A stretch of DNA of 64,000 nucleotides. Origin: Lytechinus pictus. Lineage: Eukaryota. Positions 9-51,817 of the stretch are shown here, piece by piece (position 1 is the first letter of the stretch; each line of letters begins with the position of its first letter). The notes beneath the pieces were generated by a model that was given only the letters and a program-made list of their open reading frames with translations, made no database searches and was not told where the DNA came from. A program made the translations under genes and the position numbers. Location of the stretch: assembly GCF_037042905.1 (NCBI RefSeq), contig NC_087250.1, forward strand, positions 18,726,001 through 18,790,000, written 5' to 3'.

Positions 9-5579
<5,571 letters not shown>

Positions 5580-5635
5580 CTATAATGGGAAAGATCATAG
5601 AATGGTACATCAACCTAGTTTGAGATAACCCCTTC

Positions 5636-6821: not shown

Positions 6822-6834
6822 GCTGGTCGGATAT

Positions 6835-17833: not shown

Positions 17834-20800
17834 CTGGTGGAAGGGGTTGGAATGGAAAAGACAACGTGTTGAAGATCGACCCAAACGCGTTATTACGAAG
17901 TCGGCAGTAACTACCGCATTGAAATGAATTGCTTAAAATGGGCGTTCACACACACTACATATTATATGTTGGTTTACGGTGGTATTCTCCTGAAGCTTAA
18001 TGCATTCAGAGTACTTTATTCCAGAGCCTGGTAAATTAATTATGGTGTTTACTGCTACGTGAGGCAAGCATAATTCCTAATAATTACATCCTCTGATTGC
18101 ATCCCAACCTCGGGGACCAAACCGCCGTCTAAACGGGCAATATGTGATCGTGTTTAACTCCTTTGTCGCAAGAATGTACAGAGGACATGAAAACCGTATT
18201 AAAAAGCTTTAGGTGAAAAAATACAAATGTATAACTTCTGGTCAGGATATTTCATTTCAACATCATGTTAAATGTGTAACTACAGGGAATATAGGTCTGT
18301 CTCAATTGTCTTTGCATTATTGAGCCGAGGACCGATAGATACACCGTTAAAACGGCAAAAGAATCTATGTCTCGATATATCGATTTTCAAAATAACTTTC
18401 CACAAATTTTGCTAAACAAAATAACCCACTCTGGCGTTTAACATACCAGTGGAAATGCCTTCGATGAATCCTTCGTTTTTGTAAGTCACAGGTTTGGAAA
18501 CTTCTTCAGGTCGATTTCTAAATCAAAGTTAAAAATGTTACACGTAGACTACGAAAAATGACAAAAAATAATAAATGTATTACAAGCAGTCACGGTAAAC
18601 AAAGATGATGATGATGATGATGAAGTGCAACTCAACCCTAAGCCGATGTGAATAAAAGGAGACCGTTAATACGGGCACACGTTTCCAGGAAAAAAAATAT
18701 TATACATGTAGTGCAAATTTCACAAGACGAACATCCTGGCTACATGCAAATAAAAGATATTCCAACTATTTCCTCATTAGAAATTTGAAAAAGTATGGTT
18801 TAACCTAAGAAAAATTACCTTACTGTAAAATACGGTTTTGATGAAATTCCAAATGTTATGTTTCTTTAGCTATCCAGTTTTATTCAAACCAACTCTTGTC
18901 GGAGTGGATTTCCCTCTTCAAAAACGTAATCTGCCGAACAACAATTCCCTCTACTTCTCACGCCACTACTTATACTATCACTGACACTATTATCTACCAC
19001 ACTGTTTAAGGTCTGAATAGGTCATCATAATCATCTAAAGATGAGCCCAATATTCTGTACACAAGAACTCCATCTTATTTCGAGAAGGGGGGGGGGGGGC
19101 ACTGGATATCTTCTTTTCAAGAACCATGATGATGATAGGTGTGTGATGAGGAAGAGAAACCGTCGAGACATATCCAGTTACCTTCTTCTTTTGGTTATTA
19201 TGATCACCAGGCCAGCAATCAACAGAAGGATGATTATTCCACCTATAGAGCCACCAACGGCTGGACCAGTAGAAGAGCCAGAAGGCGGTTCTATTGAAGA
19301 TAAGGGTGTAAAAATTAAAAGATATACATCGTTTCAATGCTCGATTGTTTGTGTTTGATCTTGTTATGGATGCGCCGTGGCTCCATTTCCCCTCGAACTT
19401 TAAGATTTTCATTCCCGCTAGCAAAAACCATGCATGGCCCGAATTCACAAAGGTGGTTTTGAAAACCCACGGTTGAGTCCATAGATTATGCAGATTTCCT
19501 GTATAAATTACGCTTAATTTAGTGCGTATCGGGCGCTTGTATAAAAAAATGTCCAATGCCGATGCGCGTTTTCGTCACAGTGCGCCAAATTGACGCCTGT
19601 TACCCTGGTTAAATACGCTATTTTATTCATGAGTCCACGTTTGAAGAGTGAGCTCTTTTTTTCAAAACAGTAGACTCATGAATAATATAGCGTGGATCAC
19701 CACGGCAACAGGCGTCAATTTGGCGCACTCTCACAAAAGCGCGCATAAGCATTGGGCATTTTTTAATATACGCGGTAAAATAAGCGCAATTTATACAGGA
19801 AATCTGCATAAACCATGGACTCAACCGTGGGTTTTCAAAACCACCTTTGTGAATTCGGGCCATTGAGTTACAAAAAACAAATCCTGTAAAGTGACCAGTC
19901 GTACCCTGCAGTGAAAGTGGATAAAGAAATCGATTAATATTCTCTAGATTCGAATCTTTAAAGTGATTGTTTAACATTGATTTGACTTTAAGAAAATCTG
20001 AGCTAGAAGGTCACACTTGTCAACTCTGTCTGTGATATGTTACAAAAATGAAGCCCAGAAAAAATTACGTTCGAAGATAATTATTAAGTGCTTCAAAAAT
20101 TGAAATATAAAGTGACCGGAAACACCACCTTAATTTCATCCCATACATGTATGTGTACTATTTAGGCGTCTATTAGACGCCTATTTACGAAATCGGGGTT
20201 TGCCTTGTAGATTTAGCTTTTCATTCTCAATAATGGTTGTTTTCAGGGTTTATTAGTTCTAATACATGTATTTATACAAATGTTTAATCTTGGTTTAAGA
20301 ATTTTTTAAATCGGCTGCTCACAAAGTTAAACAATACCTTTAAGTCAAGTGTGTATAGTGGTCGATTGGCCACTTTGTATTTTAACTGCTACATACTAGA
20401 ATGCATGCCATTATACCATGGGAGTACAATAATACCGTTGTCCGATATAGGACTGTTGGCCTTAGAACTTGTCTACATAATAAAATAAGACAATTTATAA
20501 AGTTCAAACAAGTGATTTATTAAAGCAAAAATAAATGAAAACTTTTTGATAATAAAAATAAACAATATAAGACAAACTATCGCTGCCAAAATTTGAACAA
20601 ACCTGACAAACAAGGAGAAAGTAAATATTATTAAATGTTGTAAAAACTGGCAATATAACATTTTTTTTATCAATGGGTGATGTCATAGTGATGTATCTCC
20701 GTGTAGTTAGTGGAATAAAACTCCACTTTGTATAGCACACTTTTCTCATCATGTTTTTTTTAATTAAGGATTACATTCAAAAAATTAATATAAACTCAAG

Positions 20801-22732
20801 GTAAATTACAACAAAATTTACAAATCCCCATTTTATATTCACAAGAGTCTACAATATTCACCAAAATCTGAGGTAGAATAAAATGCCTAAAATAATATAT
20901 ACTAAGAAAACTAAACTGAGCCCGGCACTCGAAGTAAACCTAATTCATGAATGATTTGCAGGAAACAAAAGTCAAAATATTATCATCGCAATCGTAATTT
21001 CATTTTACATCAAGCTCCCACGTACAAAAAACATACATTAGCATATACACCTCCACTCACACATACACATATATAAACAATCATAATTATTTACAAATGT
21101 GCTCAAAGACTTAAGCATTTTATTTCCTGCAACATAAGGAACAGGGGAAAAAATGAAAATTACATTATTATAAGAGGAGGGGAAATCGACAAGAACTCAT
21201 ACAAAAATGCACCCTGCAACACCAAGATTCACTCTCGCACTATGCTAGTCACCGCATACCTGTTCATGTTCAAATCTCTATTCACATTCAGTACATCCCA
21301 TTTCTGTATACTTAACTTGTCTGACTTCGTTGATAGGCGTCTGTGTTCCTTGTTTCATACAACCCGCAATGTATTGCGTTATTTTAGTTGCCTTGCTTCA
21401 ATTTACGGCTGGTACTAAGCCTAAATTGCTTACCTTGACAGCCAATCACAGCTCGCCGTTTAGCGTCCATTGTCTTTTTTGCGGTTCTATTTTATATTGT
21501 TTCGCTATGAAGCTATAGTCATTCATGTGATTTTACTCAGATGACTGCATACCGAAAAGCTTCAGTATGTCCGTTTCTAAGGCTATTTCATAATACATTT
21601 CTGTATTTTGATAAATGAGGTACCCGGCCTTCAGCTCTGAAATTGAATATTGCACGTATTTTATTAATAAAATAACAAAATTAACACATTTATTTCTATT
21701 TGAATTTCCATTTAATTCAAAGGATATACCCCTCCAAGCCGCAGTTCTTAATTCAAATGAACAAAACTAATCAATACAAAATTGCCACAGAGGTTTAACT
21801 TTCAGACAATCCATGAGTAAATTAAAGTACATGTATGATTCGCACAACGTCAAAGACTAAAATGTCATTATCTTTATCATTGACTCACCTTCAATTATCT
21901 CGAGAGTGGTAAAATTCAAAGCAGGACCCTTTCCTCCTTCACCGTTAAGTCCCTCACGAACTGCTGAAATCCGAATCTCATACGACTGACCATCGTCCAG
22001 ACCAGAGATGTTGTACATCAGAATATCTAAATCTCCCTGTCTCTTTTTCCTAGAAGAATCATTTGGTAAGCGATTCACCTGAAGCTGTTTCATCTGCAAT
22101 CCGTCTCGTTCTTTCTTTACCGTTGTAAACACTTCATAGGAAGATTTCATTGATCCTCCATACCCTCGTCTTTTCCTTGAAGGCGCAGATCCTGGCGGTG
22201 ATGATGGAACACCCGAAGCTGTTAAGAAGGTGCTTGTTTCGTTGCCATCTGGGGTAGCAACGTATACCTTGTACCCGATGATAGGACCATCACCAACATC
22301 AACATCAGGGTTCCACGAATCCCAGGCAATGACGACATTTTTAAAACCTAGCTCTGCTATTCGAGGCTGATTTCTGATCATTGGGAGAACTAGTGGAAAG
22401 GTGTGTAAGTTGTATTTGATATAAATCATTTCATAAAGTGAGGAAAGGAAGGATTAACACATATTTTACACACACCCTCCTAGGCCTCCCTCACCCTCAA
22501 CCACTCGGACACACTTCCTGACGAATACCCTCTCACGTTCCTCCTCGCAGGAACACACTCACATTACACATGAAAGGATTGAGGAATGGGAACACGAAAA
22601 TATCTTTTTAACATTATTCATCTCATTTTCTTCGTTTTTGCCCATTCCATATATTCTATTTATTCTGTTAGGTAGCACAAACAAATATAAAAATGCATAT
22701 GTATATTGTATATTTTTACACACACACACACG

Positions 22733-22792
<60 letters not shown>

Positions 22793-23585: not shown

Positions 23586-23623
<38 letters not shown>

Positions 23624-23692
23624 AAAGAAATGGATGAAGAGAACAAAGGTAGGCGTTGCCAAAGTTGCCAAAAGCTGTTGTACATGTAAAAC

Positions 23693-23736
<44 letters not shown>

Positions 23737-25396: not shown

Positions 25397-25463
<67 letters not shown>

Positions 25464-28400
25464 GGTGAAAAAAAGTATTCAATGAAAGACATACCAAATG
25501 TCCCAGACGGTGAGACTCTGGCGTAAGCGAAACCACCGTAACTCGTTGCATACCCCACAAAACAATAAATGGGTTGGGTGTCAATGCCTTCATAGAACAA
25601 GGTAAAGTTTGATTGTATTGAAGGCTGTTCGCCGTCGGCAGTAGTTTGAGCCTCCTGCCCGTTCACCAAACTATTTCTTGAGATGTCTCCAATACTTGCC
25701 CAGATGACGAGGGTGCTGTCCAGTGAATCAGAAGTAAAGGAACAAGAAAAGATCGCGACCCCTGGGTTCGTCTTTTCTCTTGTGACAGTAAAACGATCTA
25801 AGACAAAGTGTTAAGCATTTTGCACATCAATGTTCAATAGAAAATGACAGGGCAAATGCAAACAAAGGGTTTCACAAAAGTGAGAGGGAAGTTAAAGAAT
25901 ATTTTCACCAAGATATTTATATAAACTTTACAAACCCCACATATGCACCAATCCTCGTACCTTCTATTATAGTAATGATAATAAAAACCGCTCAGGTACG
26001 TTATCAGTCATTTTGATTGAATTTCATACATAGCTATCACACAATACATTTATGCATTACAAGGAACGATTTATACTTCTCATACTAACCTTTTTGACAA
26101 TTGTCTCCAATCCAACGTGGATGGCATGATGAAACGTTGCACATCCCGGTCTCTTGGTCGCAATCTGTGTAACCACCAGCACAGTGACATGTTTTCGAGC
26201 AAGACTCAAAACATCCAGAAACTAAAAGTTTTAAATTGGCAGAGAAAATCTTAAGGAGTGCATATGTGGAAGGCGCGCCAATTAAAGGGGGGGGGGGACT
26301 CGCCCTAGTTTTTTCATTTTTTTGCTTTAAAAAAGTTGGACACCCCCAATGTATTAAATCGTTCATTCATCCCAGCTTCAAGGAATAATTTGTTCAATTG
26401 AAACAAATTTTGAAATAGTTTTCCGTCATATATAACACACACATCGTCTGGAGGATCTCAGAAAATCTATGGTATATATGTATAACCAAAGAGCCTTTAA
26501 TACCTTATATTGTTCATCGTTCTGCTCAAGTGCAGACATTTTACACCGATTTTCTCAGCTAGCCCTCTTGAATCGCTTATATATTTTACGTTGTAAAGAA
26601 CACAGACTGTAGATGACATTTTAAACTCAACATCACGCAAATTTGTCATATCGTTGTCACATGCAAATAAGCACTGACTAAAAAGCTGAAAGATCATGTC
26701 TTACAAGTGGAACATCGGTCTGGTGTGTCTGGAGATTGAGCAACATATCCAATCTCACATTGTCCTTGTGTTGACGTACAGAACCCCGACTCCTTCTCAC
26801 ATTCTGAGTGATCCGGGCAGGTACAGAACTCTGTGCAATTAAATCCGGTATATCCAGTAGGGCAGACACTTGGGACTGAAAAAAAAAAACACGGAATTCA
26901 TGATTTTCGACTAAATGCTATTACCATGTCAATGTCGATTGTGACTCAAAATGATTTAGAAACAGATTGCCCCTGAAAGATGCAGAAAAAAAATTAGGAG
27001 TTTATTATTATAACTATACTATTACTACTACCTTGTCAATCTTCTCCAGACCAACCATCTTCACAGCTTAATTCACACCCACATCACATGTGGGTGCGTC
27101 GTGGTCTAGTGGTTATGACTCTCCTTTGAAACAGAGGGTCGTGGGTTCGAATCGTAGCCATGGCGTGTTTTCCTTCAGGAAGAAATTCATCCACACTGTG
27201 CTGCACTCGACCCAGGTGAGGTGGATGGTTACCCGGCAGGAGTAATTCCTTGCATGCACTAAGCGCCGGTGATGGTAGTTCGAGCTAAAGCCGGGGTAAT
27301 AATAGCAGCGCTTTGTATCTTCTGGCAAAAAGCGCTTTATAAATCCAGCTATTATTATCATTATTATCCTCCAGTGAAAGCATCACATGATTTCCCTCCA
27401 GCACAGTGACAATATTGAAGACAATCAACCCCAAACTGTGTGTGAGGGTTGTGTGCGTGTGTAGGAGGTGAGTGGGGGTGGGTGTTTGTGTGCGCAAGGT
27501 GGGGGTAGAGCTAAGAGGAACTATGCATACCTTGGCAACCGTCTCCTGACCAACCATCTTCACAGCTACCTTGACATCCTCCAGTGAATGCATCACATGG
27601 TATCCCTCCAGCACAGTGACAATCTTGAAGGCAGTCAACACCAAACTTTCCTGGAGTACATTCTGATGAAGGGAAATTGATGAAACAAAATAAGATTAGT
27701 TTTATACTACATATCTGCTTCATCAGCATATCTCACTGTATGCAACTTGAAAGCATCCAAGCAATGTTAGGTACTTCCTTACCACACACACGCGCATCCT
27801 CACATAACCACACACACGCGCGCGCACCATCACTCAAACACATATATGTATTAATTATTTTTTTCTTAATCATTATAAGAGTTATTATTAGAATTATTCT
27901 ACCGGACATTTTGAAGGTGTCATGCGATAATGCTATTAGATGAACAATATGTTTTAATGGGTAGGCTAACGGAAATCAATTGATTTTCTTTTCATACGTT
28001 CATCGCAGTATATTCCTGTGTAACCAGAGAGGCAGTTGCATCCATAGGGATCGGGTAGACATATTTGACTCCCACTGCAAGCATCCAGAACATCGCCAGC
28101 ACCACATTCGAGTTCACAATCCCATCCAAAACGATGTTTGCCACATGCTAGTGAATAACAATTGTTCATTAAAAAATAGTCAAACTTTGTTACTACATTC
28201 TTAAGTCGCATTATTTAAACCAATCATATGCCCTATACACTGGATATCTTTATAATTCAAGCTATATTACTTCTGTATGTGTATATACTGCTACCGTCTT
28301 ACAAAGAGATACGATTGATCCAATAAATCGTAACTCTATGGAAATCCATCAGTGTCATAATTTTTTCTACAGGAAATTTGCAAAATGGCCTTTGTAAAAA

Positions 28401-31400
28401 AGGAGAACACATCAAATTGTCAAGAAATCAATGAACTTATGGATATACATTCATATCTAGACATTTTTTTCTTAGCAAACATGCACTTTATATGTTGACT
28501 TTGCTGGCTTTCCATAGTTGCGATCGATCGGATCAATCGCAACTCTTTGTAAGACGGGACCCTGATCTTGCCTGCGTTTGCATAAACCTCCATTGCAGCT
28601 GGAAATCGAATCTGAACAAATATCTGCGATTCATACATCTATGTTTTCGTGGTCACATCGAGTCAAGATGTTGGCCTTTCGCTCTTTTGTTTCCTCCACT
28701 CTCACTGCGCTCCATCCAGTGCACCCTTTCATCCACACTGCACAAAGCCCGGGGGTCCCACGATCAGTGGGTAAGTGCAGTGCGGAGGAAAAGCGTGCAG
28801 TGGATGGAGTGCAGTGAGAGTGGAGGGGAAAATATAGAAGGACCAGCATCCGGATTCCGGACTAGGTAACATCCAGCCTTTACCTGACTGTGTCTTCAGT
28901 TCGGCCGGAGGGGGGGGGGGCAGTCAAATATATTGTGGTACACATGCGTGACCAAAATAACGCTTTTAAAGGGGTGTTTTTTCAGATTTGGACGCGGACC
29001 GCCCGTGCATTCGGTCAGGGTATCAACAACACCAATCCCCCCCAAAAAAAATGGTTGTTTCGAAAGACTCGTCAATGATCAATCGCGGGGTCAAACGTTT
29101 TTAGGGTACGTTTTCCCCCCAAAGTTTTTTTCAAGAATATCCAAACGTGTTTAGGGTATGTTTAGGTCATAAATCAATTATATAAGGATATGACATATAG
29201 CACAAGAAAGGATCACCAGTCGTGCGTAAAGTCATTCGCATCTTACCAACAGTTTTATGAAACACCCACCTGGGCTACCAAGAGGGCTGCTCAGATGGTT
29301 TGACATATTATGTACGTGCAGGAAACACGATGACCGTTCGTATATCATCTTGATTTTATAACAAGTAGCCACACGCACCTGGCACGTTTCGGACATGTAC
29401 AGAAGCTGTCCTTTCGTATTTAACTTGCTCCTGCGTACTCAATGAACAAGTACAGACCTGTGCATATGTCACAAGGATTATCTAATCTTATTCACTGCAG
29501 ATAACACGTTGGAGGAACACAGTGAATTATTATCAAGCCATAGCCTATCCACGAAATTTAGTTCATTTATTCCTCGACCAAAATGGTATATGCAGAAATT
29601 AAGGTCAAGGTTAAAGAAAATCGAACAGAAATACACACCGGTGAGACAATTCTTGCCGCTGAATCCTGGAGGACAGATACACGTTCCTGATTGTGGATGA
29701 CAGATTCCTCCATTGTAACAGTTATCACACAAACGATCACACAACGGTACGTTCCATCGGCTTCGGGGACAATCTTTTAAAAAATTTGATGAGGAAATGC
29801 AGAAAATGGTTTAAATGAAGTCAATGTAACATTCAACAAACTCGAACTGTATACATTTATAAAAAGGTAAATACATTTATAATGTTAGGACATACCAACA
29901 TTTTTACAACGTCTTTATAGACCAATTCAGTTTAGTTGCCGGTTGACGGCTGTAACAGGGTCTCAATAGCGTAAACAACGCATATGTGCGGGCGGCACAG
30001 CTCCAAGTTTTGTAAGTACAAGAGAGGAAGGAGAGCATGAGCTAGATCTTACCACTAACTATGACGCGAATCAAGCTGTAAAGACGGTTATCGACTGTAT
30101 TACTTCTGAATGTTCCATAGATATCTGCATTTCTTTTAGCCGCTGAACGAATAGTATAGGTCAGAGTTCCATCTCCCTCTGGAGACAAAGATCCTTCAGC
30201 AAGGTTTGAGAAGGTGCTCCAACGGATTTCATCCGACGACCCCGATGAATACCTATCAGTGGTAGACACACTTAGCGTAAAGTCATCTCCGGGATAAACT
30301 GTTTTGGTGAGGCGACCGTCACTTGGTTGAAAATGTCCTGGAAATGAATGGGTTAATAATGATGTGATAGCAATTAAATTGATGAGGACAACGAACTTTA
30401 ATTTGATATGCATGATTGGCGCCCAATTTATGTCAAGGAGCCACAGATGTCTGCAAATAGTTTACTGAAAAAAGGTCCATGTGGTCTGGGTTCTTGAAGT
30501 TTCGTACTCCTTGGACACTATTATCATAGAACAGTAATCATGCAAATCGTATACATACGTACTGTCTTGTGAGAGAATCGTTACATCTACAGACGTCGAA
30601 GTACCGGTAATGGTAGATGTACTGGAACACTTATAAACGCCAACGGATTTTGCATCATCAGGGAGGGTCTGTGTAAAACCACCGGTCTGAGATGTGTCCG
30701 TGCCCGGTACGTTTAGTGTGTATCCCTCGGGAGTGAGGCTTGGTCTAATCGCTCTTTCTGCATAAGTTATTGTACTCTGCGGAGTGTGAGATGAGAGTAT
30801 GCAAGAGAAACTTGGACTTGTCCTGGTACTCCCGAAAGGGGATGGAGTCATGGCAAGTAGATGAAGAGGTGTGACTTTAAAGAATAAGAATGAGAAAAAA
30901 ATGGACAGTAAATATTTGGTTCAATTTCATTTCAGTTTATTTCTGGTTCCCGTCATACAAGGAGTTGCGATTGATGCGATCAACCTCAATTGTATGGAAA
31001 TCCATCAATGTCGTATTTTCAAGGTTTTTAAGAAAGAAATTACATATCTAGAAATTATTTTGAATGAACATGCATTTTTTATACATGACGGTGCTGGATT
31101 TCCATATTTGCAGTTGATCAGATCGATCGGAATTCTTTATAAAAACAGGTCCCCGCTGAGCGTTTCAACATCATCCAGTAGCAATTGGCATGTTTGGTAT
31201 CTGATAATGATGCATGGTTTCTAGAGGCGAAGGGTGTAGTAGTTACTATGGTAACGACGCGCGAACAATCGACGAGATGAGCGTAGGCGTCATAAATGGA
31301 CAATTCTATATGTAGTCGCTTTTGTACTTGAGGTTGAATTTCTGAAAAACTCCCAGTTCCCGAGTAAAATGAAGTGTCCGATTAATCAAGTACCTGAGAC

Positions 31401-40400: not shown

Positions 40401-43400
40401 AACATTCAACTTACCCCGTTGTTCGTAACAATGTTCCGTCACTCCATCTGAAATCACCTTCACTGGTCAGATCATCAAGTCCAAACCAAAACCTGACCAC
40501 TCCAATCTTTGCAAATTCATCTACCACTCGTGACTGTTTCATAATGAAGAATATAAACAGTTATTTTACCTCGAAATTTTGCTCAAACGACACCGTACTA
40601 TAACAGACACAAGCACCCCAACACGTTCGCACGCAGTGCACTCGTCTGTGATGCATTTTGTGAAACCTATGTTACACGTGTGCGAGAGTCAATCCTTACA
40701 TCCTTTCATTTATCAAAATTATGATTCCCATTATTCTTCATATGAATGTATTATTATTGTAATTATCATTTTTATCATTATCATAATCATTACTATCATC
40801 ATCATCGTCGTCATCATTATCATCGTCACCATCACCATCGCAATCGTTATCATCATAATCCCAATCACCATCGTCTTAATCATAATCACCATCGTCTTCG
40901 TCTATTACGACGACATTGTCTAGTTGATATAAAGCAATCTTACGTGTAAAGTTTGTGTTTTCAACTGGGCAAGCTGTCCACCTATTTGTTGACAATATTC
41001 ACGTGCGATGAAATAGTTGGTTGAAAATGAAGAAAAGTAATACTGAACATTTTTCACTTGAGGGATATGTATCCATTTGCCAGTGATTGGTACTGTAAGA
41101 AAATAGATAAAAAATGTATTCTGAGTGCTGGAGTGATGAAATCATGAAAATGCTGTTGTGGATGCGAGCTTTGCTTTGACAGGTTCTTTCATATTCTATT
41201 CACTCATAACTGCTGTTTATCTGAGTCTAAGAAATATTACGGAGAAAGTCACATCAGGTTCTGTTATTTTTGTTTTGTTTATAAACATATAGCTTAACGT
41301 GCTGGTTTATCATCGGAGCAATTGTCTCCTCAGAGTAATATGTATAATATTTTATAATTTTATGTAATATCATCATTTATGTTACTAGCAAAGGTTTCAT
41401 GATATTTGCTCCGTCGACAATTACTCTGAAGGAAAATCTGCGCGTTAAGCCAAACATGAAATCTAACATCCAAACGGAGAAGTGTCGCGTCAACCTTCAG
41501 GGTGTCAAAAAACAACACTGTGGCGTTATGATTGATTTTAAACTTAATTAAGACTTTCTGGGGAAAAAAATATTTGTTTTAAATTTTCACCATGTTATTG
41601 AAACCTGGTTTTGAAAGGTAAAAATGACACACATTCATAAAATGTTTAAATCAAGCCAATGTCCCATCTATAAGAATGGAGAGTGTACTACGGTTGGTTG
41701 AATGAATAAACCTTTGACAAGGAATGTTAATTTGGTACATCTCAATTATCTACGATTCATTTTAATCGTAAACATAACACCACGGAGATGAAACCGAACA
41801 ATTTTGGATAAACGACTGTTGCATAATGTATTTTTGTTTTTAAGAAATACAATCAAAAATAATTTTTTAATGTGTAACCATTTTTAATTACCTAGGTTTA
41901 ATAATAACGCTATATTCATTTTCTTTCTCTTGTTGCTATTAACGCCGGTCCCAATATTACCTTGTGATCTTTCGCAGATGTAAGGCAGTGTATCTTCACA
42001 AGTCCTACTGTCCCATCGGCCGTGATTGTCATCATTGTTGCCATCAGACATCAGACACCCACACGACCGTCCTGTAAACCTTGATGGCTCTCCAGGAGCC
42101 CACATGGGGTTACTGAAGCGTTCGGTGATTAAGAATAAAGTATAAAAATGGACGTATAAGCATCTTTGTTAAGTCCTTGATAAATGTTATAGTACCAAAC
42201 TATAAAGGTGAAATAAATTATTTGCATTCACCTTAACGTCCCTGGTCACCAGTGAACTTCAACACACACGAATGTCCTCACAATTTATACAAAGTGTGTT
42301 TGTGTTATTTTACCATAACGTTACTTGTCTGGAAGTATGTATAAGGGTGTGTGTGCGCACGCGCGCGTGTGTGCGTGAGGGGCCTTAGGGTGCGTGTTTT
42401 TTAATACAAGTGCATGAATATTTTTACCTCGGCATTAGCGATGTGCATTGGCCGAGTGGAAGTCTGGGGTTCGATTCCCGGTGCGTCTCTTGAGAGATGT
42501 ATTTAACCTGGTTAATTGCTCATTTATTTTATTATTTATTATTTATATAAATGAAAAATAATATATACTAGTTCCAACGTGTGCGTGTTTAAAAAAAAAT
42601 TAAATAAAATGGCAATGTGTTAAAGAGTTATTTCAGGAGATGTGTAGGAAATAGCTCAAGTGAATGAAGATTTTGCAGAGTCAATTATTCCAGTATAGGT
42701 GTCGCAGTTTTTCATTTGATCAACGTTTGGGGAGATTGGTTATAAAGCTAGAAGCAGACACTTAATGTTTGTATGCATTAACATCTACTATGCCTTTGAG
42801 CATTTCATTGGTTCTGATAACACTTTTATACTCATTTTGAAATATTGATTTTTTTTTTCACAGAAGTTGTAGAATCATTTACTACAGAGTGCACAAAATG
42901 TAATTTTCGTTCTGATGTTTAACTTCATACACACCTAGGCACAAAGTAAAAGAAATATATGGTCACCTTATTGGAGTACCATCATTCCAGATAAATTGGT
43001 CGCTGCCGGAGCTTTGGTTTAGCCCAAACCAGTAACAATGAGGAGATGAAAGGGCGGGTGATACAATTGATGTGAGGAATGTCTGTGATAATATACATGA
43101 ACACAAGATTATTAAAAAAAAATACACGACATGGTTTTACTAAACTTCTCAGGCGTGGTTGTTTTTAACAGAGATATGAATTGGCACACAGAAAAGTAGC
43201 AAGGTAGTTGACATATATATGTTATGTGATTTTTTTTCTTATATCATACAAATTCGGCCATTATAATCATAAAATACAAAGGAGGATGATTTCACTTACA
43301 TTCAATTCTGTTGATCTGATAATTGCCAATCTTCCACCGCTACTCCTACAATCAGTCTCGGCTGCGTCAAAAGTTTGACCATCCCCCATGAAGCGGTATA

Positions 43401-45859
43401 ACGATTGTCCGTACTGGTGCCAGAAACATCGGGGATCTATGAAAAAAATACAACTTTATATTTCCAAACTGATAAACCAATCTGCAAAAGAATAGATTAC
43501 AAAATAAATCATATGACCCCTATTAAAGTCAAAACTGTAAATCAATTAGATATTTTTTTTACAAGTGCACACCAAGTTACCAATAATGCATATAGCACCG
43601 CTATATATTTGAAAGCAGGGTAAACGGAGCATTGTACGTTAAATGCCTTGCTCACGGGCATAGGTGCCGCGGCCGGGGATCGAACCCCGGACTTTCTATG
43701 TATTACCAGGCGCCTTAGCCCACTCGGCAACGGCACCATGATAATGATGATACTTATAAATAGTAACGATAATAGTAATGATGAAAATGAAAGTGAATAA
43801 TAACAAAATAATAACAAAAATGAAATAACAGAAAATAAGAAGTAAATCTAAACATCTATGGAAATTCAGATCTAAGTAACCGATGAATGCGCTGCCCTAG
43901 CCTGTCAAGACTGTAACATATGACATTTTTCGAAAAAAAAATGCTGTCGACCATTAATCTGATATTTTCTATCGATTTGGAGATCATTGCAAAGTAAAGT
44001 AACATCCCCATCTACACACACCCTAACACCCACACTCTTGTTATATTTTACATGTAGACCAACGATCGCTCATTTTCTTCCTTTGATATACCAACACTCC
44101 TTCATACTATGTGTACACCCACATCTAAACACCTCTATTTTTGTTAAATGCACATAGCCTTTGTAATATTCTAGAACTTCTTTAATACACAAACACACAA
44201 GCACACACTTCAACGTTATATTGCACTGCTACCCTCATGCACACACACACGCACGCTGCACGCACAATCCGTTGTATACTCATATTCCTTCCTATAACAT
44301 TGTTCAACAACATATCCCGCGCTCTTTCTGTCTCTTCATTTAAATCACTAACACTCCTCATGGGCGTAGGCTGGTTTGAGCATTGGGAGATGCACATTTT
44401 GGGAAGGTGGAACTAAAGTTTGGAAAATCAGCTGTTGAAACTAGAATAAGGGGTAGAAATTTCATTTTGCTTACCAGTGTCAGTACTCCTCTGCCTCAGC
44501 GGGAGGGTGCATGTGCACCCAGTGCAAGCCCAGCCTACGCCCTTGCTCCTTCATAACATGTTAGACACACACTCTTTTCAGCATTATTGATTGGCAGAAG
44601 GTGAAACTAAAGGCGATATCGAGATATTTTAATACCTATAGGGCGTTGACAAATGTGTAGACGCATGTTGGTACATTCGGACTCCTCCCACTGTCCAGCA
44701 AATTTTGACCTTAGCCGAATACAATTCCCGATGTTTGGTGTATATGGTGTAAGAAGGAAGTTTGAATACCTTAAACATAATAGTTGATAAATGATTTATG
44801 TTCGAATGAAATATTAACTAAAGCTCCAATGAAACATCCATAATGTAATCACATTGACAAGGGACGCGGATTTTTTTTTTTTTTTTGGGGGGGCAAAGCA
44901 AAAAAGGGACTTTAATGAGGGTTAATTACGTTCTGCTTGAAGAAGCTATTTGTTTTGTGGAAATGTAATTCGTACTTAACTTTTTAGAAGGGCATTTCTG
45001 GAGATATATTATAATGTGAAGTACATGAGCGAGCGTAGCACGCGAGTGGATTGGAAAATTCATGCAAAACTCGCTTTGCATTTGGTGCTAATATATATAT
45101 ATATATATATATACAGTGCGTCCCAGAAAAGCTTAGAATCTCCTCTTTCATCTGAAATTACTGAGATTATTTCTCATTCACGCATGAATGCGCAAAAACA
45201 ATTTGAAGAAGGGATATCAAAAAGTCACTTGGCGGGCTGTATCTGGGTTTAAAAAAGAAAACCACATTCTTAAAAAGTTCAATATATGCTCTTTAATTTG
45301 ATACCTCATTTTTAGAAAATGGTCAAGAAATAACAAAGTTTTGGTTATTTGAAATAAGGCTTGAATTTTAATAATTTCATAAAATGAAGAGGTTTTACAG
45401 GATAGCGTTCAGACTCACTCGACACTCCGTTTTAGACGATCAAGTCATGCATTAAGTCTTTTGTTAACCGTGCGATAGCTACTGTGGGAAACTGGTGAAA
45501 ACACGATTATTTAATGAAATTAATGAATTACAAGCATTGTTTCGAGGGAACATAACTTTTTTACTTCTCGACCGTTTTCTGTGATTAAGGTATCAAATAA
45601 AAGAGCAGATATTGAACTTTTTAGGCATGTGATTTTCTTTTTGAAATTCAGATTCCCCCTGCCAAATGATTTTTTGGTATCCTTTCTTCATATTGTTTTT
45701 GCTCACTCATGCGTGAGTGAGGAATAATCTAAATAAGTTTAGATGAAAGAGGAGATTCTAAGCTTTTTATTGGTATAGGTCATTTGTCTATTGTGTTCAT
45801 GATTAAATTATGATAAATCATCGCTAAATCTCGGTTTCGTTTTTTTGTGGGACGCACTG

Positions 45860-45901
<42 letters not shown>

Positions 45902-47087
45902 TATATAGTCATGCTCAAAATAAATAAATTACATTGGCATATATAGACTAGCCGTCCTCATGGCGCAAAACGGTCTACGTACGGTGAGTCGAAAACAGCC
46001 GTTTCAACATTTACAGTAAGGATGGTTTGAATAAAATTAGATGAAACGGTTGTTTTCGCCTCGCCGTTCTGCGGACGTAGGGAAAATGTAACCGAGATTA
46101 CTTACCCTGAAATGCTATTGTTTATCCATGTGTATATGCCGTCCCCGTCAAGGTCATTCAGGCCAATCCAGTAGTTATATTCATTGCCCATCTCTTCTAT
46201 CGTAAACGTGTTCAGAAACGCCTTTTTAAACGACCAATCGAGATTAGTGATATGAAAATACAAATGAAAAATACTAATGGATATTCATGTTAGGTTATCG
46301 GACTTGATAGAAACGACGATTGCTACTATAGACTGATGTGCTATACCTCGTTCCCACTTTACGAACACTATGATTGGCCCTTCGGAACCTATTGCCAACA
46401 AAATTGAACTATGTGATTTTTTTTCTATGATCATTACGATTTCCACAACTGATCTGATACGATCTAATACGAGCTGATACGTTCACCGCGATAACTCCAA
46501 TAGTAAGACCATCGTTTCAATCGTGGCACGAATCGCGAAAGAGGGAACTATAATATTATAAATCTCAGGTTACTTTTGTTACCGCCCCTGGATCTCCAGG
46601 TAGAAGTAACCTCCGTGACGTGTACAGAGAATTCCACAGTAACGTTCTAATAGCACCCCAATGCGTAACTGATAGGATTATGTTGACTGCAGTTGTATAA
46701 ATTGATGCCAGTAACCTTTGATTAATTATATGAGTGACAGAAGCTGTAGCAAAATGTTAAAATTGTAACAATCTGTATTTGTAATAGAACATCAATGAAC
46801 AAATATTTCGGCAATTGACTCCCCCCCCCCCCCCGTCAGTGTTGCTCATATGTGTCAAAATCAAAATGTTTGAACGAGCGAAATTTGCTTATCTTTGGAG
46901 AAAGAGGTTGATATTAACCTTTAATGGCCGTAAATATTAGATAGTAATCACTTAAACCTATATTTTGTACTCCTGATTTAATGACAATTTCACTAAGTGA
47001 GTCAGAAATACAAATTAAATCAATAAGTGATTGTCTGTTAGGCGTAACTCTCGTGGGTTCAGATATAACCTGTGTCATCTGCTTGGT

Positions 47088-47130
<43 letters not shown>

Positions 47131-50100
47131 CTTATTTTGACAGATTAGTATCAGTTAACATGTTAAAGTTAAAATCCCCAAGGATGATAACATTGCATGA
47201 CTTTCCAAATACTTTCTCGAGATTTTGTTCTAAACTCTCAGAGAATTCTAAGTGACTGTCAGGTTTCCTATACAGTATACTAACGAATTAGAGTGAGCTG
47301 CTATTAGCACGCAGTAATTCGAGCCACAATATTTCAAATGTTACAGGTTCAAGATCTGTTCTTCTTACGTAGAAAGTATTTTCAGATATATAACACCCTA
47401 CTCCTCCTCCAAGGGTGCCCCTATACCTTCTCTCAAACTTACATTCTTTAACGGAAAACAAACTATCAGAATATTCTTCTGTCAACCATGTTTCAGACAA
47501 ACTGAATATATCAAATTTATACACCAGCAACCTTATTTACCAGACTCCTTACATTGAGATGAGCAAGTTTGATGCCTTTGTGTTTCATTTGAAAGTGTTA
47601 TTCGACTCATCTTTAATACAAGATAGTACTTGTACTCCCTGACATCTCACTGCATTTTATTTTGATTTCATCATTTTCTTTTACTTCACCTACATTATTC
47701 CAAAAGGGTAGCTGTTGCATCAAGCACATATGACAGAGCCAGTTTTCAAAGAGTACATCTGAATCATAGGGTTTTTTTTCAGGACCTATCCACAATGTAT
47801 ATGTAACCTTGGAAAACATCCAGTACATAATAATGCCTTTTGGGTTTTTTAACGACCTACTGCAAATAGAACATGTGTATTTAACCATTATCAAAAACTG
47901 TGATAAGACTTGCGTGGAATATTGATGTCTCTATTCGTATAAGTCTCAATGTGGTGCAATATAAAATGTATGTGCAAGAGAGTGCACCACAATAAATGAA
48001 CGTTATTTCAAATTGGTAATAATTGAAACATTATAAATAATAACTATATAATCCTTGAGCAATGATCAAACAAGATGCCAAACAATTTAAAGTTGGAACA
48101 ATTACAATATCTCACAGTAATTAATAATAATAATAGGGTATAGCAACCCTGTGAATTTAAATTACCTACTAGATCTAAATCACGATCTAAAACAGTAACT
48201 AGAATATTTATAGAATGTATAGATCTAGACTATGTAAATACATATCCGTATAAAATAGATTTCATTAATGGTAGAGACTTGGTCTAAATATACTCTACTC
48301 TCTACATCTATTAAAACATAAGTAATCGACATTTGTTTCATTCGATGCTATGAATACTGAATTAGTGATGGTCTTGCTTATTATTGGCATAACCCATACT
48401 TTTATCCCATGTTTTACGTAGTTAATTTTGGTAAGGAAGCAGTTTGTAATATTCAAGTGAGAAAACTTGAAAAAATATATTTCCTAATCAAAGTACGCAT
48501 GCAGTCTAGTTACATTCTGATTTACACAGTGTGCCCACTGTGTAAATGATGATCTGATGATAATCCTGAACAGAGCTTTAACTGAACGAGCCTGGTGCTG
48601 AATGATTCCCCTTATACAGTGAGTATCAAAAAAAAGTTTACACTTTGAAAAAGCCCTGGGAATTAAAAAATATACAAGATGTGGGTAATTTTGTTCACAT
48701 ATAATCTTGGGTTTGGGTCTTATCTATCCAATGAAAGTAAAAGTTTTGTCAGAATGTTACACTTGAGTGAGCACTGTCCATTTTTGTAAAGCTCGCAGAA
48801 ATCTGTTTGCGCAGAAATGCTCGTTTTCACGCTGTGTCAAGGGGAAAGGGCGAAATCAAACTTACCCTGCGAAACAATGCTCGTATATTTCTCTTGCACT
48901 TTTAGTCAATTGAAATAAAACGGATACATTCAAGCATTTTGTAACAATTTTGCCACCCAAATTTAAATTTCAGTAATTTTAGTCAGCACAACCTCTACCA
49001 TTTTTGTGCCAGCTGGATCTGAGGACATAACTAAATCTGAACAAAAGTTTATATCAGACATCTTCAGCATTTTTTCACTAAGTTTTTATCATTGAAAGTG
49101 GGTTTACATTTCATTTTTCATTTAATACTTGTTTCTCCACACTTTTCCCAAGCTTGGCAATGATTAACAAAATGAAAATCAGGCTTAAGCCATTCCATGT
49201 AAATCACAGCTCAGTGTAAAAGCAAATGGTGTGTGGGGGAGTGGGGTGGGGTAAAATTCAATTTTCGAAGTGTTTTGGGCAAGGAAACAAGTCAAAAAAG
49301 GTAAAAGATATCTTCAAATCAATTTTACTAGCTAAATTCCACGTGTTCTTCATGATTAAGGTCTACTTTTATTCGCATAACTATCTCAAAGTTCTGCGCA
49401 AATCATTTTTCACTAACTTTTCAAAAGTAAGTGGCGCTCACTCAAGCGGAAATATTTTTCGACAGTTATATCGTCATTTGCTTAAATGGATCTGTACCAA
49501 TGTTAAAATGTGAAAAAATCTTCAGGATATTACAAATGTATAACTTTACAGGATTTTTTCAAAGTGTAAACTTTTTTTGATACGCACTGTATACGTTATG
49601 ATTGAAAGAAAAAGCTTTGAAATTCTTTTAATTGTTTTCATGCGCCTTAACATTTCAAAAATAAAAGCGAAGTCCCATACATCATATACATATCGTGGAT
49701 GGGTTGTTGCTTTCGGGAGGTAACCAGCGGGGGCGGCCGACTTCTATGCATGATATTCAGTTATGAAATATCTGCTGACATATATTATTATTATATTATA
49801 TTATATTATTATTGTTATTAAATTTTGTTTTTTTAAACCAGTTTTGGTCTTATCCCTTTCCAAAGTGGTAAAGTAGTATTAATAGCATTCCACTTGACTC
49901 GACTATATCATAAGACTTTCAAAGAGTAATATAATAAACTTTACCACCTACGTTTTGCTCATTGGAAGTAATAACTGGTAAATCTCCACCCAGTGATCGA
50001 CAATATTCCATAGCATCATTGTATGTCCTAGGAGTAGTAAACACGAGATGATATTGATGATTCTCAAACTCTAACCATCCTGGCGTATTGCATATCTGTC

Positions 50101-51817
50101 CACGTCCTGTATTGGAGAGATTTGGTAAAATTTAAATTATAAACCAATCATCATCTATTTTGTCATCTATAATAAAACAAATATGAAAAATTATAGAAAC
50201 ACTGGAAAAGTGTTTTAATTTTTCGATACAAGTAAGCCTCACTCGCCCACCCCTAAAATAATAAATAAAAAATAAAAAGATAAACAAATTAATGAATAAA
50301 TAAATAAATGAATGCATTGATAAATAAATCATTTTGTTAGTTGCACACTTTTGTTTCTGCATTCAAAACGTAAAAAAACTTCAAAAATCCCCATATGATA
50401 AGTGCAAAACACCATGTTAAGAGTGCTCGACTATAATATAGGAGCGATGAACACACAATATACAAATATATATATATATAGAGAGAGAGAGATAGATAGA
50501 GTGTGTGTTCCGGCCTGTATATACGATAAACAAAATATAACAATTTAGTTATTATATGAAATACGGCATTTAAAAATCGTTAGCAATTAATGAAAGAGAC
50601 CGCAATCCTGAGAAGTTAAACGGTGGCTTCATATAAAGGTTTCCGACATTTTCGTTTAAAAAATAAAAGGTCGATGTATTGTAATGTAAAGTAATGTGAT
50701 CCCATACAAATCCAAATTGCGCTATTTCACAACTTAGAAATTGTTATCGAGTTCTTATTATTATTATTATCATTACGGGGTTGATTAGAAAGGCAGACCT
50801 CGATAGCTCAATGGCCTCGTGTCTGTCCCTCACATCCGCAGCAAGATGGTTTTTGCTTTGCCTCTTTGTTTTTGTTTTTGTTTGTTCTTTGCTTGTTTTG
50901 TAAAATAAATATTTGTCCTTTGTGATTTAAAGAGTTGTGGAATAAATTGAATTGTCGGTAACCAGAAAAAATGTGAGCGGAGCTTTAGTCAAGGTGCCCT
51001 GATCTATCCTCCTTTTTAAATTCTAATGAGGCCAAAATTATATAGTATCTGCCAAAGGTCGAGCCCCGGGGCCCTAAGCTCAATCCACCTCAGTGGTGAA
51101 ATCTAAAAGGCATATGCGTTCTTAAAAATGATGGTCCGGGCTGAAAATATTTATATCTAAATAAATAGAGTAAAATTCACTGAGCAAAAATGCTGAAAAT
51201 TTCATCAAAATAGGATAACAAATAACGAAGTTATTGAATTTTAAAGTTTATCAATATTTTGTAAAAACATTTACATGCACATCGTCATGAATATCTATTG
51301 GGTGGGCTGATGATGTCACATCCCCACTTTTCTTTTTCTTATGTTATTACATGGACTGTGGACTGTGTCTCCATTATGATGAGTTGCGGCAATAAATAAC
51401 TAATGCACTTAATCAGCTATCAATCCAATTGAAATACGAAAGAACAAGTGGGGATATGACATCATCAGCCCACCTAGTGAATATTCATAAAGACATGCCT
51501 AGAACTGTTTCACCGGAATAATGCAAATCTTTAAAATTAAATAACTTTGTTATTTGTTATCAGATTTTGATCAAATTTTCAGCGTTTTGCTTTGTGAATT
51601 TTACTCTATTTATTGAGATATGAATATTTCCAGCCTTGACCATCCCTTTAATGCTGAAGTCCGGCTTCGTTGATTTGGGACGTTGAAATTAAACTGCTTT
51701 AAGTTTAATAGTTGCAATGACGATACATTCATTTTTATGCGATAACTCATTTTAACTCTTACCTCGGCTTGTAAAAATACACAATAATGATAGGAGAACC
51801 CGAACTGATGTGTTCAT
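17517..51817 (-). CDS. Multi-exon receptor gene: signal peptide, 3 C-type lectin domains, Tie-like ectodomain (Ig-Ig-EGFx5-Ig), FN3, TM, juxtamembrane; lectin-bearing receptor-type PTP-like
   Basis: 21 hand-spliced GT-AG exons (51817 to 18447) total 3577 nt, with matching intron phases and no stops. Exon 22 starts at 17833; read through unspliced it stops at TAA 17517-17519 (1297 aa). The 3' end is uncertain. Confidence 0.85.
18447..18517 (-). CDS. Exon 21: cytoplasmic juxtamembrane
   Basis: NRPEEVSKPVTYKNEGFIEGIST; phase 2-1 fits both neighbours; donor gtatgt. Confidence 0.75.
19182..19290 (-). CDS. Exon 20: transmembrane helix and basic stop-transfer
   Basis: EPPSGSSTGPAVGGSIGGIIILLLIAGLVIIITKRRR; phase 1-2. 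Confidence 0.9.
19436..19861. mobile_element. MITE with long terminal inverted repeats (GGCCCGAATTCACAAAGGTGG...)
   Basis: Near-perfect 45+ bp terminal arms with imperfect internal symmetry. Confidence 0.8.
19962..20339. mobile_element. TTAA-flanked non-autonomous DNA element (Kolobok-like)
   Basis: TTAA|AGTGATTGTTTAAC...GTTAAACAATACCT|TTAA. Confidence 0.65.
21889..22389 (-). CDS. Exon 19: fibronectin type III domain with an inserted loop
   Basis: VVIAWDSW...GDGPIIGYKVY...YNISGLDDGQSYEIRISAVREGLNGEG; phase 1-1. Confidence 0.92.
22889..22960 (-). tRNA. tRNA-like gene with a fully paired cloverleaf and UCA anticodon (repeat-borne; function unknown)
   Basis: Acceptor GTCTCTG/CAGAGAC, D stem GTCT/AGGC, anticodon stem CCGGC/GCTGG with loop GT-TCA-AA, T arm CCGGG-TTCGATT-CCCGG, discriminator A, then T7. 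Confidence 0.6.
23419..23490 (+). tRNA. Second copy of the UCA tRNA-like sequence (one T-stem mismatch)
   Basis: Same 72 nt except CGCGG for CCCGG; followed by T6. Confidence 0.5.
23737..25399 (-). mobile_element. Full-length Tc1 transposon (1663 bp)
   Basis: Identical 25-bp TIRs CACTGTTGGTCATAAAGGTGGAATA, TA on both flanks, one internal transposase ORF. Confidence 0.95.
24069..25091 (-). CDS. Tc1-family DD34E transposase (340 aa from the MPSPTA start)
   Basis: Paired-like HTH, GRPR motif, VFTDES, QDDNARPH, SPDMNPIEHAW with 34 residues between D and E, C-terminal RGGHTRY; no stops. Confidence 0.95.
   Translation of the reverse strand: MPSPTATATRERVVALRQEGYKQTVIAEVLGISQSAVSKILKRQREAGNVRPRKSPGRPRLTTRRDDRQLLNFSRRNRKLPKSRLRRLWKRYHGINVSRSTVNRRLLKHGYRARGLTKCPRLSVRHRVARLLWAREHRRLHPGHWQHVVFTDESQFILDRKDGRQRVHRLAGENLSDECIHETTQGGGGSVMIWAGIHYGGKTPLVVPDGNANAAAYSEILEFHCRPYARRVYGHNFRLQDDNARPHRAAAVREFLEAEGVVQLPWPACSPDMNPIEHAWDALGRAINDREVIPQNLQELADALREEWDAMPVDVINKLVDSMPRRLHALVRARGGHTRY
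25495..25797 (-). CDS. Exon 18: Ig-like domain 3
   Basis: EKTNPGVAIFSCSF...PIYCFVG...PSGTF; Cys pair; phase 1-1. Confidence 0.85.
26090..26221 (-). CDS. Exon 17: EGF/laminin-EGF repeat
   Basis: SGCFESCSKTCHCAGG...CHPRWIGDNCQK; phase 1-1. Confidence 0.9.
26705..26875 (-). CDS. Exon 16: EGF/laminin-EGF repeat
   Basis: VPSVCPTGYTGFNCTEFCTCPDHSECEKESGFC...CEIGY...DRCST; phase 1-1. Confidence 0.9.
27032..27436 (-). pseudogene. Decayed tandem duplicate of EGF exon 15, split by a SINE
   Basis: 27366-27436 reads FGVDCLQYCHCAGGKSCDAFTGG; 27032-27080 reads GCELSCEDGWSGED*Q with a gtag donor; the 5' end and acceptor are missing. Confidence 0.8.
27092..27367 (+). mobile_element. tRNA-derived SINE (same family as 10210)
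   Basis: A and B boxes, shared body, (ATT)n tail. Confidence 0.82.
27531..27662 (-). CDS. Exon 15: EGF/laminin-EGF repeat
   Basis: CTPGKFGVDCLQDCHCAGGIPCDAFTGGCQGSCEDGWSGDGCQ; phase 1-1. Confidence 0.92.
27998..28147 (-). CDS. Exon 14: Tie-type EGF repeat
   Basis: ACGKHRFGWDCELEC...CLPDPYGCNCLSGYTGIYCDE; CLPDPYGC is the Tie1/Tie2 signature. Confidence 0.93.
28293..28560. mobile_element. MITE; related copy at about 30945-31155
   Basis: ccgtcttacaaagag...ctctttgtaagacgg terminal inverted repeats. Confidence 0.7.
29639..29773 (-). CDS. Exon 13: Tie-type EGF repeat
   Basis: DCPRSRWNVPLCDRLCDNCYNGGICHPQSGTCICPPGFSGKNCLT; phase 1-1. Confidence 0.93.
30053..30337 (-). CDS. Exon 12: Tie-type Ig domain 2
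   Basis: HFQPSDGRLTKTVYPGDDFTLSV...IRW...ADIY...SLIRVIVS; phase 1-1. Confidence 0.9.
30563..30874 (-). CDS. Exon 11: Tie-type Ig domain 1
   Basis: VTPLHLLAMTPSPFG...FSCIL...SVGVYKCSS...VTILSQD; phase 1-1. Confidence 0.88.
31758..32493. mobile_element. Putative non-autonomous TIR element
   Basis: CATGGACCTATGAA...TTCATAGGTCCATG inverted termini; no clear target-site duplication. Confidence 0.5.
33317..33459 (-). CDS. Exon 10: C-type lectin domain 3, third part
   Basis: YSSWTSNQPNNYNGWAHCGEVW...GWNDNPCSYRREFVCEKS; QPN and WND; phase 2-1. Confidence 0.93.
35990..37556. repeat. Degenerate 330-380 bp tandem subrepeats rich in GTTGCCATGGCAAC, probably the subterminal region of a DNA transposon
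   Basis: ttagatgttatttggttgccatggcaatggcttaag recurs at about 35990, 36368, 36748 and 37077; the region ends ...cttatccgctctacta. Confidence 0.65.
38472..39458 (+). mobile_element. Non-autonomous Tc1/mariner-type element, copy 1
   Basis: TA|CAGTGCGTATCAAAAAAAAGTTTACACTT termini; TA on both flanks. Confidence 0.88.
40415..40533 (-). CDS. Exon 9: C-type lectin domain 3, second part
   Basis: ...VRFWFGLDDLTSEGDFRWSDGTLL; phase 0-2. Confidence 0.93.
40944..41092 (-). CDS. Exon 8: C-type lectin domain 3, first part
   Basis: GKWIHIPQVKNVQYYFSSFSTNYFIAREYCQQIGGQLAQLKTQTLH; phase 1-0. Confidence 0.88.
41961..42112 (-). CDS. Exon 7: C-type lectin domain 2, third part
   Basis: NPMWAPGEPSRFTGRSCGCL...GRWDSRTCEDTLPYICERSQ; phase 2-1. 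Confidence 0.92.
42967..43082 (-). CDS. Exon 6: C-type lectin domain 2, second part
   Basis: TFLTSIV...CYWFGLNQSSGSDQFIWNDGTPI; phase 0-2. Confidence 0.92.
43300..43436 (-). CDS. Exon 5: C-type lectin domain 2, first part
   Basis: DPRCFWHQYGQSLYRFMGDGQTFDAAETDCRSSGGRLAIIRSTELN; phase 1-0. Confidence 0.92.
43545..43737 (-). mobile_element. tRNA-derived SINE
   Basis: Head GGTGCCGTTGCCGAGTGG...GGTTCGATCCCCGG followed by a SINE body and LINE-like tail. Confidence 0.7.
44636..44769 (-). CDS. Exon 4: C-type lectin domain 1, third part
   Basis: YSNFLLTPYTPNIGNCIRLRSKFAGQWEESECTNMRLHICQRPI; phase 2-1. Confidence 0.9.
45114..45859. mobile_element. Non-autonomous Tc1/mariner-type MITE inserted in (TA)n
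   Basis: CAGTGCGTCCCA...TGGGACGCACTG termini, long imperfect internal inverted repeats, TA flanks. Confidence 0.82.
46106..46221 (-). CDS. Exon 3: C-type lectin domain 1, second part
   Basis: AFLNTF...YWIGLNDLDGDGIYTWINNSISG; WIGL motif; phase 0-2. Confidence 0.93.
46560..47894 (-). mobile_element. Decayed CR1/L2-clade LINE fragment (Cys-rich PHD-like region plus APE endonuclease)
   Basis: CSICSRS...WLCHMC, DIFSLSETWL, GGGVGCYI, YRKPD, IILGDFNFNM; stops, frameshifts and an inserted (TA)n. Confidence 0.8.
48617..49589 (-). mobile_element. Non-autonomous Tc1/mariner-type element, copy 2 (inverted relative to 38472)
   Basis: Same termini and body in reverse complement; TA flanks. Confidence 0.88.
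49952..50106 (-). CDS. Exon 2: C-type lectin domain 1, first part
   Basis: QICNTPGWLEFENHQYHLVFTTPRTYNDAMEYCRSLGGDLPVITSNEQN; phase 1-0. Confidence 0.92.
51126..51647. mobile_element. TTAA-flanked non-autonomous DNA element (Kolobok-like)
   Basis: gatggtccgggctgaaaatatt...aatatttccagccttgaccatccct|TTAA with long inverted arms. Confidence 0.65.
51763..51817 (-). CDS. Exon 1 (coding part): signal peptide
   Basis: MNTSVRVLLSLLCIFTSR followed by a G|gtaag donor; phase 1 matches exon 2. Confidence 0.78.

Follow-up and report, generated by a model that had tools for sequence, protein, structure and literature searches.

A lectin-tipped, Tie-type receptor gene of Lytechinus pictus with a lone D2-type phosphatase domain and a split juxtamembrane exon

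Results and Discussion

The window, a 64,000-nucleotide stretch of Lytechinus pictus DNA (NC_087250.1, positions 18,726,001 to 18,790,000), contains a receptor gene that joins three C-type lectin domains (CTLDs) to a Tie-type ectodomain and is followed by exons for a single, altered, D2-type protein tyrosine phosphatase (PTP) domain. A 10,480-bp insertion splits the gene between these parts. Lectin-tipped receptors on a Tie scaffold, which resemble paired receptors, have expanded in Lytechinus, and the locus is probably a member of that expansion that was disrupted recently. A role as decoy or activating receptor is more likely for it than one as an inhibitory phosphatase.

The gene lies on the minus strand, and its exon model begins with the ATG at 51817. 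The exon set was derived by homology; splice-score exon prediction alone yielded none. The 22 exons are all bounded by AG and GT, and their spliced product, of 1297 residues, is identical to P0001, the L. pictus RefSeq entry XP_063957173.1. From the N terminus, the protein has a leader, three CTLDs, two Ig domains, five EGF exons, a third Ig domain, one FN3 domain, and transmembrane and juxtamembrane segments. The preliminary description of this DNA had proposed the same domain order; the spliced product confirms it, and Pfam agrees, detecting three Lectin_C domains (E 2e-50) together with FN3 and EGF in P0001.

Exon 1 (51763..51817), assigned from the spliced model, supplies the start codon and hydrophobic leader. 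CTLD1 (44636..50106; exons 50106-49952, 46221-46106, 44769-44636) and CTLD2 (41961..43436; exons 43436-43300, 43082-42967, 42112-41961) are defined by Pfam, the exon model and motif alignment, and CTLD3 (33317..41092; exons 41092-40944, 40533-40415, 33459-33317) by the exon model and motif alignment. Each three-exon CTLD block is entered and left in phase 1. The exons that follow are phase 1-1 throughout: Ig1 (30563..30874; Tie2 alignment and paralogue fold), Ig2 (30053..30337; Tie2 alignment and exon model), the five EGF exons (26090..29773; 29773-29639, 28147-27998, 27662-27531, 26875-26705, 26221-26090; exon model and Tie2 alignment), Ig3 (25495..25797; exon model and an all-beta fold in a paralogue model) and FN3 (21889..22389; a single exon with a long disordered insert, from the exon and structure models). 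The phases read from the spliced model thus confirm the phase-1 modular construction suggested earlier. The transmembrane exon (19182..19290) and the first juxtamembrane exon (18447..18517), which ends at position 18447, are placed by the exon model. All 22 exons are open, as are five PTP exons downstream, and we are highly confident in this ectodomain anatomy.

Several smaller features lie within these limits. The FN3 insert (21889-22389) contains furin-like basic sites, RKRR and RKKR, two in Lytechinus and one in Strongylocentrotus purpuratus P0008; cleavage at both would release a peptide of ~40 residues. A dead partial copy of the third EGF exon, interrupted by a repeat and terminated by stops, lies at 27438-27367 and near 27080-27040. 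Paralogues P0002-P0005 have a further juxtamembrane exon, marked by a YENL motif, that is absent here from 17834-18446.

Kinship with the Tie receptors, as first proposed, is supported by both alignment and fold. Residues 501-766 align with residues 73-322 of human Tie2 (E 1e-40), through the CLPDPYGC motif encoded by the second EGF exon (28147-27998), and EGF exons 1-3 align with the three EGF repeats of Tie2. A close paralogue, P0006, was modeled (mean pLDDT 71), and the model, in which Ig3 is all-beta and the FN3 insert is disordered, was used in a Foldseek search. The top three matches are Tie2 structures (E 3e-31 to 4e-16), and the next match has an E value of 6e-11. The urchin receptor shares with Tie1 and Tie2 (TEK) the order Ig-Ig-EGF-Ig-FN3, including the Ig-Ig-EGF3-Ig head. 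It differs from them in its three N-terminal CTLDs, in two extra EGF exons for a total of five, and in having one FN3 exon, whereas Tie2 has three FN3 domains. Tie2 is a blood-vessel receptor of vertebrates. Pfam finds no kinase domain in P0001; PTP exons follow downstream instead.

Calcium site 2 of sugar-binding C-type lectins comprises EPN or QPD, a Glu, and WND. The corresponding positions were read from an alignment with paralogues. CTLD1 has neither EPN/QPD nor WND there, and CTLD2 has EPS and WDS. CTLD3 has QPN and WND, but the calcium-site Glu kept by paralogues is Ala. Paralogue P0002 has the complete set. Glycan sensing, suggested in the preliminary description, is therefore doubtful for the L. 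pictus copy (XP_063957173.1), judging from the missing motifs of CTLD1 and the missing Glu of CTLD3. The CTLD3 tripeptide varies among paralogues (QPN, EPN, NPD, NPN, GPN, GPD, NLN). Identity to paralogues is 52-63% for CTLD3, 76-90% for Ig2 and 83-94% for EGF1-3. Ig3, at 47-76%, is as variable as CTLD3, so the divergence is not specific to the lectin.

The five D2-type PTP exons (9..5579: 5579-5480, 4127-4054, 2530-2402, 1544-1416, 163-9; minus strand, by homology) lie beyond the 18447..51817 range first assigned to the gene. They hold 195 stop-free codons, 85% identical to paralogue P0002, and the domain and its tail extend past window position 1. The proposed link to a phosphatase holds in so far as same-strand PTP exons are present downstream, but they encode one D2-type domain, and D1 is missing. 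Where two-domain relatives have their D1 exons, the locus has a phase-0 intron of 1,619 bp (5580..7198, minus strand; tblastn and profile evidence). Searches of the L. pictus locus by tblastn with P0007 and P0008 found no D1, and a D1 profile matched none of 1,053 open frames in 1-19200, from the transmembrane exon to the D2 exons. This empty profile search rules out a D1 concealed within the insertion.

The remaining domain is itself altered. WP-K replaces WPD, and the pTyr loop reads KSRN in place of KNRY; the catalytic Cys and Arg are retained. In the two-domain sisters, D1 has KNRY and WPD, and D2 still has the pTyr-loop Tyr. The roles of WPD and the pTyr loop are taken from a preprint (bioRxiv 10.1101/805119), which describes D2 domains as inactive, substrate-binding units. 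A working phosphatase, implied by the earlier reading, is not supported: D1 is gone, and D2 lacks the WPD Asp and the pTyr-loop Tyr. Judged by these substitutions, the D2-only form is quite likely catalytically inactive, and the retained Cys and Arg would allow some activity. The union of a Tie-lectin ectodomain with a PTP stands as an ancestral link, since close paralogues join both in one model, but not as a working phosphatase.

In a quick tree of 68 PTP domains, the locus and ten single-domain rows form one clade (SH-aLRT 100). This eleven-row clade contains only L. pictus and L. variegatus, is nested among D2 domains, and adjoins the D2 domains of P0007 and P0008. D2-only models with open frames occur in both species. 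Because one D2-only clade spans both, D1 was most likely lost by a single deletion before they split. Like tandem-domain receptor PTPs, the locus has a domain that groups with D2s; unlike them, it lacks the membrane-proximal D1 (KNRY, WPD, HCSAGxGR). The best-scoring matches of the two-domain sister are PTPRA, PTPRS, PTPRE and LAR. Pseudophosphatase receptors include PTPRU and PTPRN. PTPRU, described in bioRxiv 10.1101/805119 as a decoy that binds substrate without dephosphorylation, keeps a dead D1 along with D2, whereas here D1 is deleted and D2 is membrane-adjacent.

The tail beyond the window was read from the RefSeq D2 model (P0124/P0182). It strictly matches the ITAM consensus, (D/E)xxYxxL-x6-8-YxxL, with a shuffle rate of 0.0004 for a motif that was spotted first and tested afterwards. 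Looser matches, in which the spacer has 9 residues, are found in five models that represent four further loci of the D2-only clade, and there is no ITAM in the D2-only models P0002, P0183, P0011 and P0012. Among two-domain relatives, none of the 14 scanned has one, and six more were not scorable. The RefSeq D2 tail has no ITIM-like match. ITIM-like matches in two-domain tails have p values of 0.09-0.17 (three) and of 0.009 and 0.035 (two); these are mostly no better than chance, and ITIMs are not claimed there. The label "inhibitory" is therefore unsupported, given a tail that matches the ITAM consensus. The motif suggests, tentatively, that D2-only receptors may signal through ITAMs.

Paired and ITAM-bearing innate receptors include Dectin-1 type lectins, Draper/MEGF10 and the KIR/LILR pairs. 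The urchin receptors resemble them in their variable tip, their tyrosine-motif tail and their opposite-tailed sisters. They differ in that their motif comes after a pseudophosphatase domain, on a Tie frame, and that its signaling role is putative. P0216 (L. pictus) and P0231 (Ptychodera flava) combine a Tie-like ectodomain with a short, enzyme-free tail that contains loose ITAM-like motifs.

Searching with the Ig-Ig-EGF block yielded 142 matches, 120 of them listed; 62 were classified, with most vertebrate Tie1 rows left out. Among the matches listed, 23 of the 62 have a D1+D2 tail (urchins, starfish, sea cucumbers, spiders and a tick), six are D2-only, all from Lytechinus, and six have a partial or lone D1. 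A further six are echinoderm proteins with kinase tails (five Patiria, one Amphiura), three are vertebrate Tie, and the remainder have no catalytic tail. CTLDs are present in 20 of these 62 listed matches, and all 18 that were assigned to species come from sea urchins. The P0026 kinase, from Patiria, matches Tie2 clearly above RET or FGFR, after one EGFR-labelled entry. A profile search added 137 proteins, of which 65 are Tie-like: 46 have no catalytic tail, 10 have D1+D2, six a kinase, two a partial tail and one a single D2-like domain. This last is a predicted gene model of the hemichordate Glandiceps talaboti, whose closest matches within the set share only ~37-38% identity with it. Tie-like ectodomains thus occur in echinoderms, hemichordates and chelicerates, with D1+D2, kinase, D2-only or short tails. 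Kinase-tailed relatives are found among echinoderms, in Patiria and Amphiura. The combination of Tie ectodomain and PTP, first described as a chimeric receptor, is not a one-off: it defines a family widespread in invertebrates.

Two-domain sisters with a canonical D1 are present in both genera (P0007, P0008, P0018, P0020, P0021). P0008 of S. purpuratus (LOC115924937) is 75% identical over the Ig-EGF block and falls within the sister group in both the ectodomain and the PTP trees. A 2006 survey of S. purpuratus reportedly noted lectin-bearing receptor PTPs (PTPRLec). The urchin lectin-PTP proteins of the two genera share CTLDs and kinship, and P0008 has the same ectodomain. In contrast to P0008, which has D1+D2 with canonical motifs, the Lytechinus clade is D2-only, no longer has the Tyr of the pTyr loop and, in some members, terminates in an ITAM-like motif. 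The name PTPRLec had no match in the literature searched. That literature likewise held no description of the Tie-scaffold PTP family, the D1-less clade or the tail exchange, although some of it may be treated in subscription papers. Term searches within PMC11688612, PMC13228809 and PMC10815196 returned nothing on the receptor family.

Ectodomains and tails do not share one history. In an ectodomain tree of 64 rows, echinoderm kinase-tailed proteins are nested among echinoderm PTP-tailed ones, apart from vertebrate Tie. AU tests used a set thinned to 29 rows by removing most long branches and near-copies, and the groups tested were named in view of the first tree. A single clade is rejected both for the kinase tails as a whole (p 8e-12) and for those of echinoderms (p 0.0015). 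The ectodomain of PTP-tailed Acanthaster P0034 is 74% identical to that of kinase-tailed Patiria P0032 and 39% identical to that of PTP-tailed Patiria P0023. Tail swapping and gene conversion of ectodomain exons would both produce such a mismatch, with fused gene models as a risk. The stalk varies too: the D2-only P0011 and P0012 models lack EGF4-5, Ig3 and FN3, a shortening by whole phase-1 exons.

These data allow a mechanism to be proposed for the intact D2-only form, which would function as a receptor without catalysis. The variable lectin tip would bind a surface ligand, and the receptor would cluster. Src-family kinases would then phosphorylate the tail, a Syk-type kinase or SH2 adaptor would dock, and the lone D2 would act as a partner-docking surface. 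The two-domain sisters would bind ligand through the lectin tip and dephosphorylate through D1, and D2-only members would see related ligands as their activating or decoy partners. We infer the ligand, cell type, signaling, glycan binding and immune expression of the receptor. A broader scenario, rather unlikely as a whole, is that in deuterostome invertebrates Tie-scaffold ectodomains move among kinase, phosphatase, pseudophosphatase and tyrosine-motif tails, and that urchins add a fast-changing lectin tip. In Lytechinus, deletion of D1 and acquisition of an ITAM would then have converted a phosphatase receptor to an activating one, making paired immune receptors from a receptor tyrosine kinase frame and a receptor PTP tail, with a separate loss of D1 in a hemichordate. 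If so, the Tie ectodomain is not bound to a kinase and, outside vertebrates, is a frame for opposite enzymes. The D2-only receptor would offer a natural test of the role of D2 without D1. A lectin-tipped on/off pair, if real, would be a new candidate recognition family for echinoderm immunity in a laboratory species. The value lies mostly in the family; the locus may be merely a broken allele.

The break is in the second juxtamembrane exon. Its 5' half (17713..17833, minus strand; homology and exon model) ends in a first TAA copy (17715-17713), and its 3' half (7199..7229, minus strand; homology), which has an intact GT donor, is preceded by a second copy (7232-7230). Between them lies the 10,480-bp insertion (7233..17712, unstranded), delimited by the TAA duplication and inverted ends; the two halves are adjacent in paralogues. 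The ends have TAA on each side and 13/17 inverted terminal matches, starting GG, a pairing reached by 0 of 200,000 random pairs. Read-through adds 64 residues before an in-frame stop (17519-17517). A three-base TWA duplication with short inverted ends is the signature of PIF/Harbinger elements. The TAA duplication and the short, GG-starting ends fit this signature; the size of 10.5 kb, the imperfect ends and the lack of a DDE transposase or Myb-like frame do not. Pfam found neither a transposase nor a Myb-like frame in 88 frames and six read-through frames, a search that short exons may escape. It returned three weak, unrelated matches and a baculovirus-family match (E 9e-4) below cutoff, taken as chance. 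A 59-bp piece near the right end (7279-7337) recurs at 14327-14384 (83%), hinting at a nested or composite element. Hairpin-like, MITE-like inverted repeats at 6662-7181 and 9176-9343 have high depth in public runs.

A contig of depth 691 from another organism in public runs matches the last 360 bases of the insertion and stops at 7232, which indicates that this end belongs to a repeat family. This independent match and the TAA repeat make an assembly error unlikely. Contigs of run X1 cover much of the insertion with 0-4 differences; they may come from other copies of the element, since run X5 has near-identical pieces and little of the gene. Among the 15 joints listed, of 465, none skips the insertion. 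In X1, exon 5579-5480 is covered only by a contig differing at two sites, and intron 20609-21225 is nearly uncovered; contigs show presence, not absence, and neither observation is counted as evidence. The intact state of the five downstream exons suggests that the insertion is young, perhaps confined to one allele.

A single intact gene, as first described, is not what the locus holds: the insertion and its stop break the frame, and RefSeq has two gene models. The downstream exons form a separate gene with two isoforms, XP_063956641.1, 100% identical to three window exons, and XP_063956640.1. At the level of gene models, the PTP exons thus belong to a different gene from the lectin and Tie-like exons, which is the kind of outcome that the preliminary description had named as refuting it. 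On this haplotype, the transcript would enter the insertion and encode a membrane-anchored ectodomain. This product would have neither D2 nor ITAM, so we infer that the disrupted copy is a decoy or a null allele.

Alternatively, the loss of D1 and the insertion could be neutral birth-and-death events in a fast-turnover family, leaving a functionless copy. Relatives are often truncated or fragmentary (46 of the 65 Tie-like matches lack a catalytic tail), the L. pictus copy lacks the YENL exon and the CTLD3 Glu, and splicing resumed at 7199 would presumably expose the stop to nonsense-mediated decay. However, D2-only open frames persist in both Lytechinus species, and the exons on both sides of the break, 22 upstream and 5 downstream, are open. 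Decay suits a single copy better than a D2-only clade, and we consider it unlikely. It is very unlikely that the insertion gave rise to two functional products, namely a decoy at the membrane and, from its own transcript, a cytosolic D2 fragment that carries the ITAM tail. RefSeq gives the downstream gene two isoforms, the spliced frame of the five exons has its first Met at codon 69, where the shorter model starts, and a TATAAA lies ~35 bases inside the end of the element. Yet the fragment would lack a membrane anchor and the first 68 residues of the domain, including the pTyr loop, and intact exons suit a young break rather than a domesticated gene. An intact inhibitory phosphatase, with the insertion spliced out or missing in most animals, is extremely doubtful: the break is young and may affect one allele, canonical-D1 sisters exist in both genera, and Cys and Arg are kept, but an insertion-free allele would still lack D1, none of the 18 GT sites from the exon start to the stop reaches the score of the weakest among 27 real donors, and the tail has no ITIM-like match while those of the sisters are mostly non-significant. 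A disrupted, paired-receptor-like member of the Lytechinus expansion remains our preferred reading.

Other elements were noted in the window. An apparently intact Tc1/mariner element occupies 23743-25399 of the Ig3-FN3 intron, with TA on either side, matching repeats at its termini (at least 19 bp) and a 340-residue frame with DD34E spacing. The same intron contains inverted tRNA-like matches with a TCA anticodon at 22889-22960 (minus strand) and 23419-23490 (plus strand), probably carried by a repeat. Upstream of the gene, 56600-64000 is a tandem array of ~4.5 units of 1.63-1.71 kb, in which alternate units are most alike.
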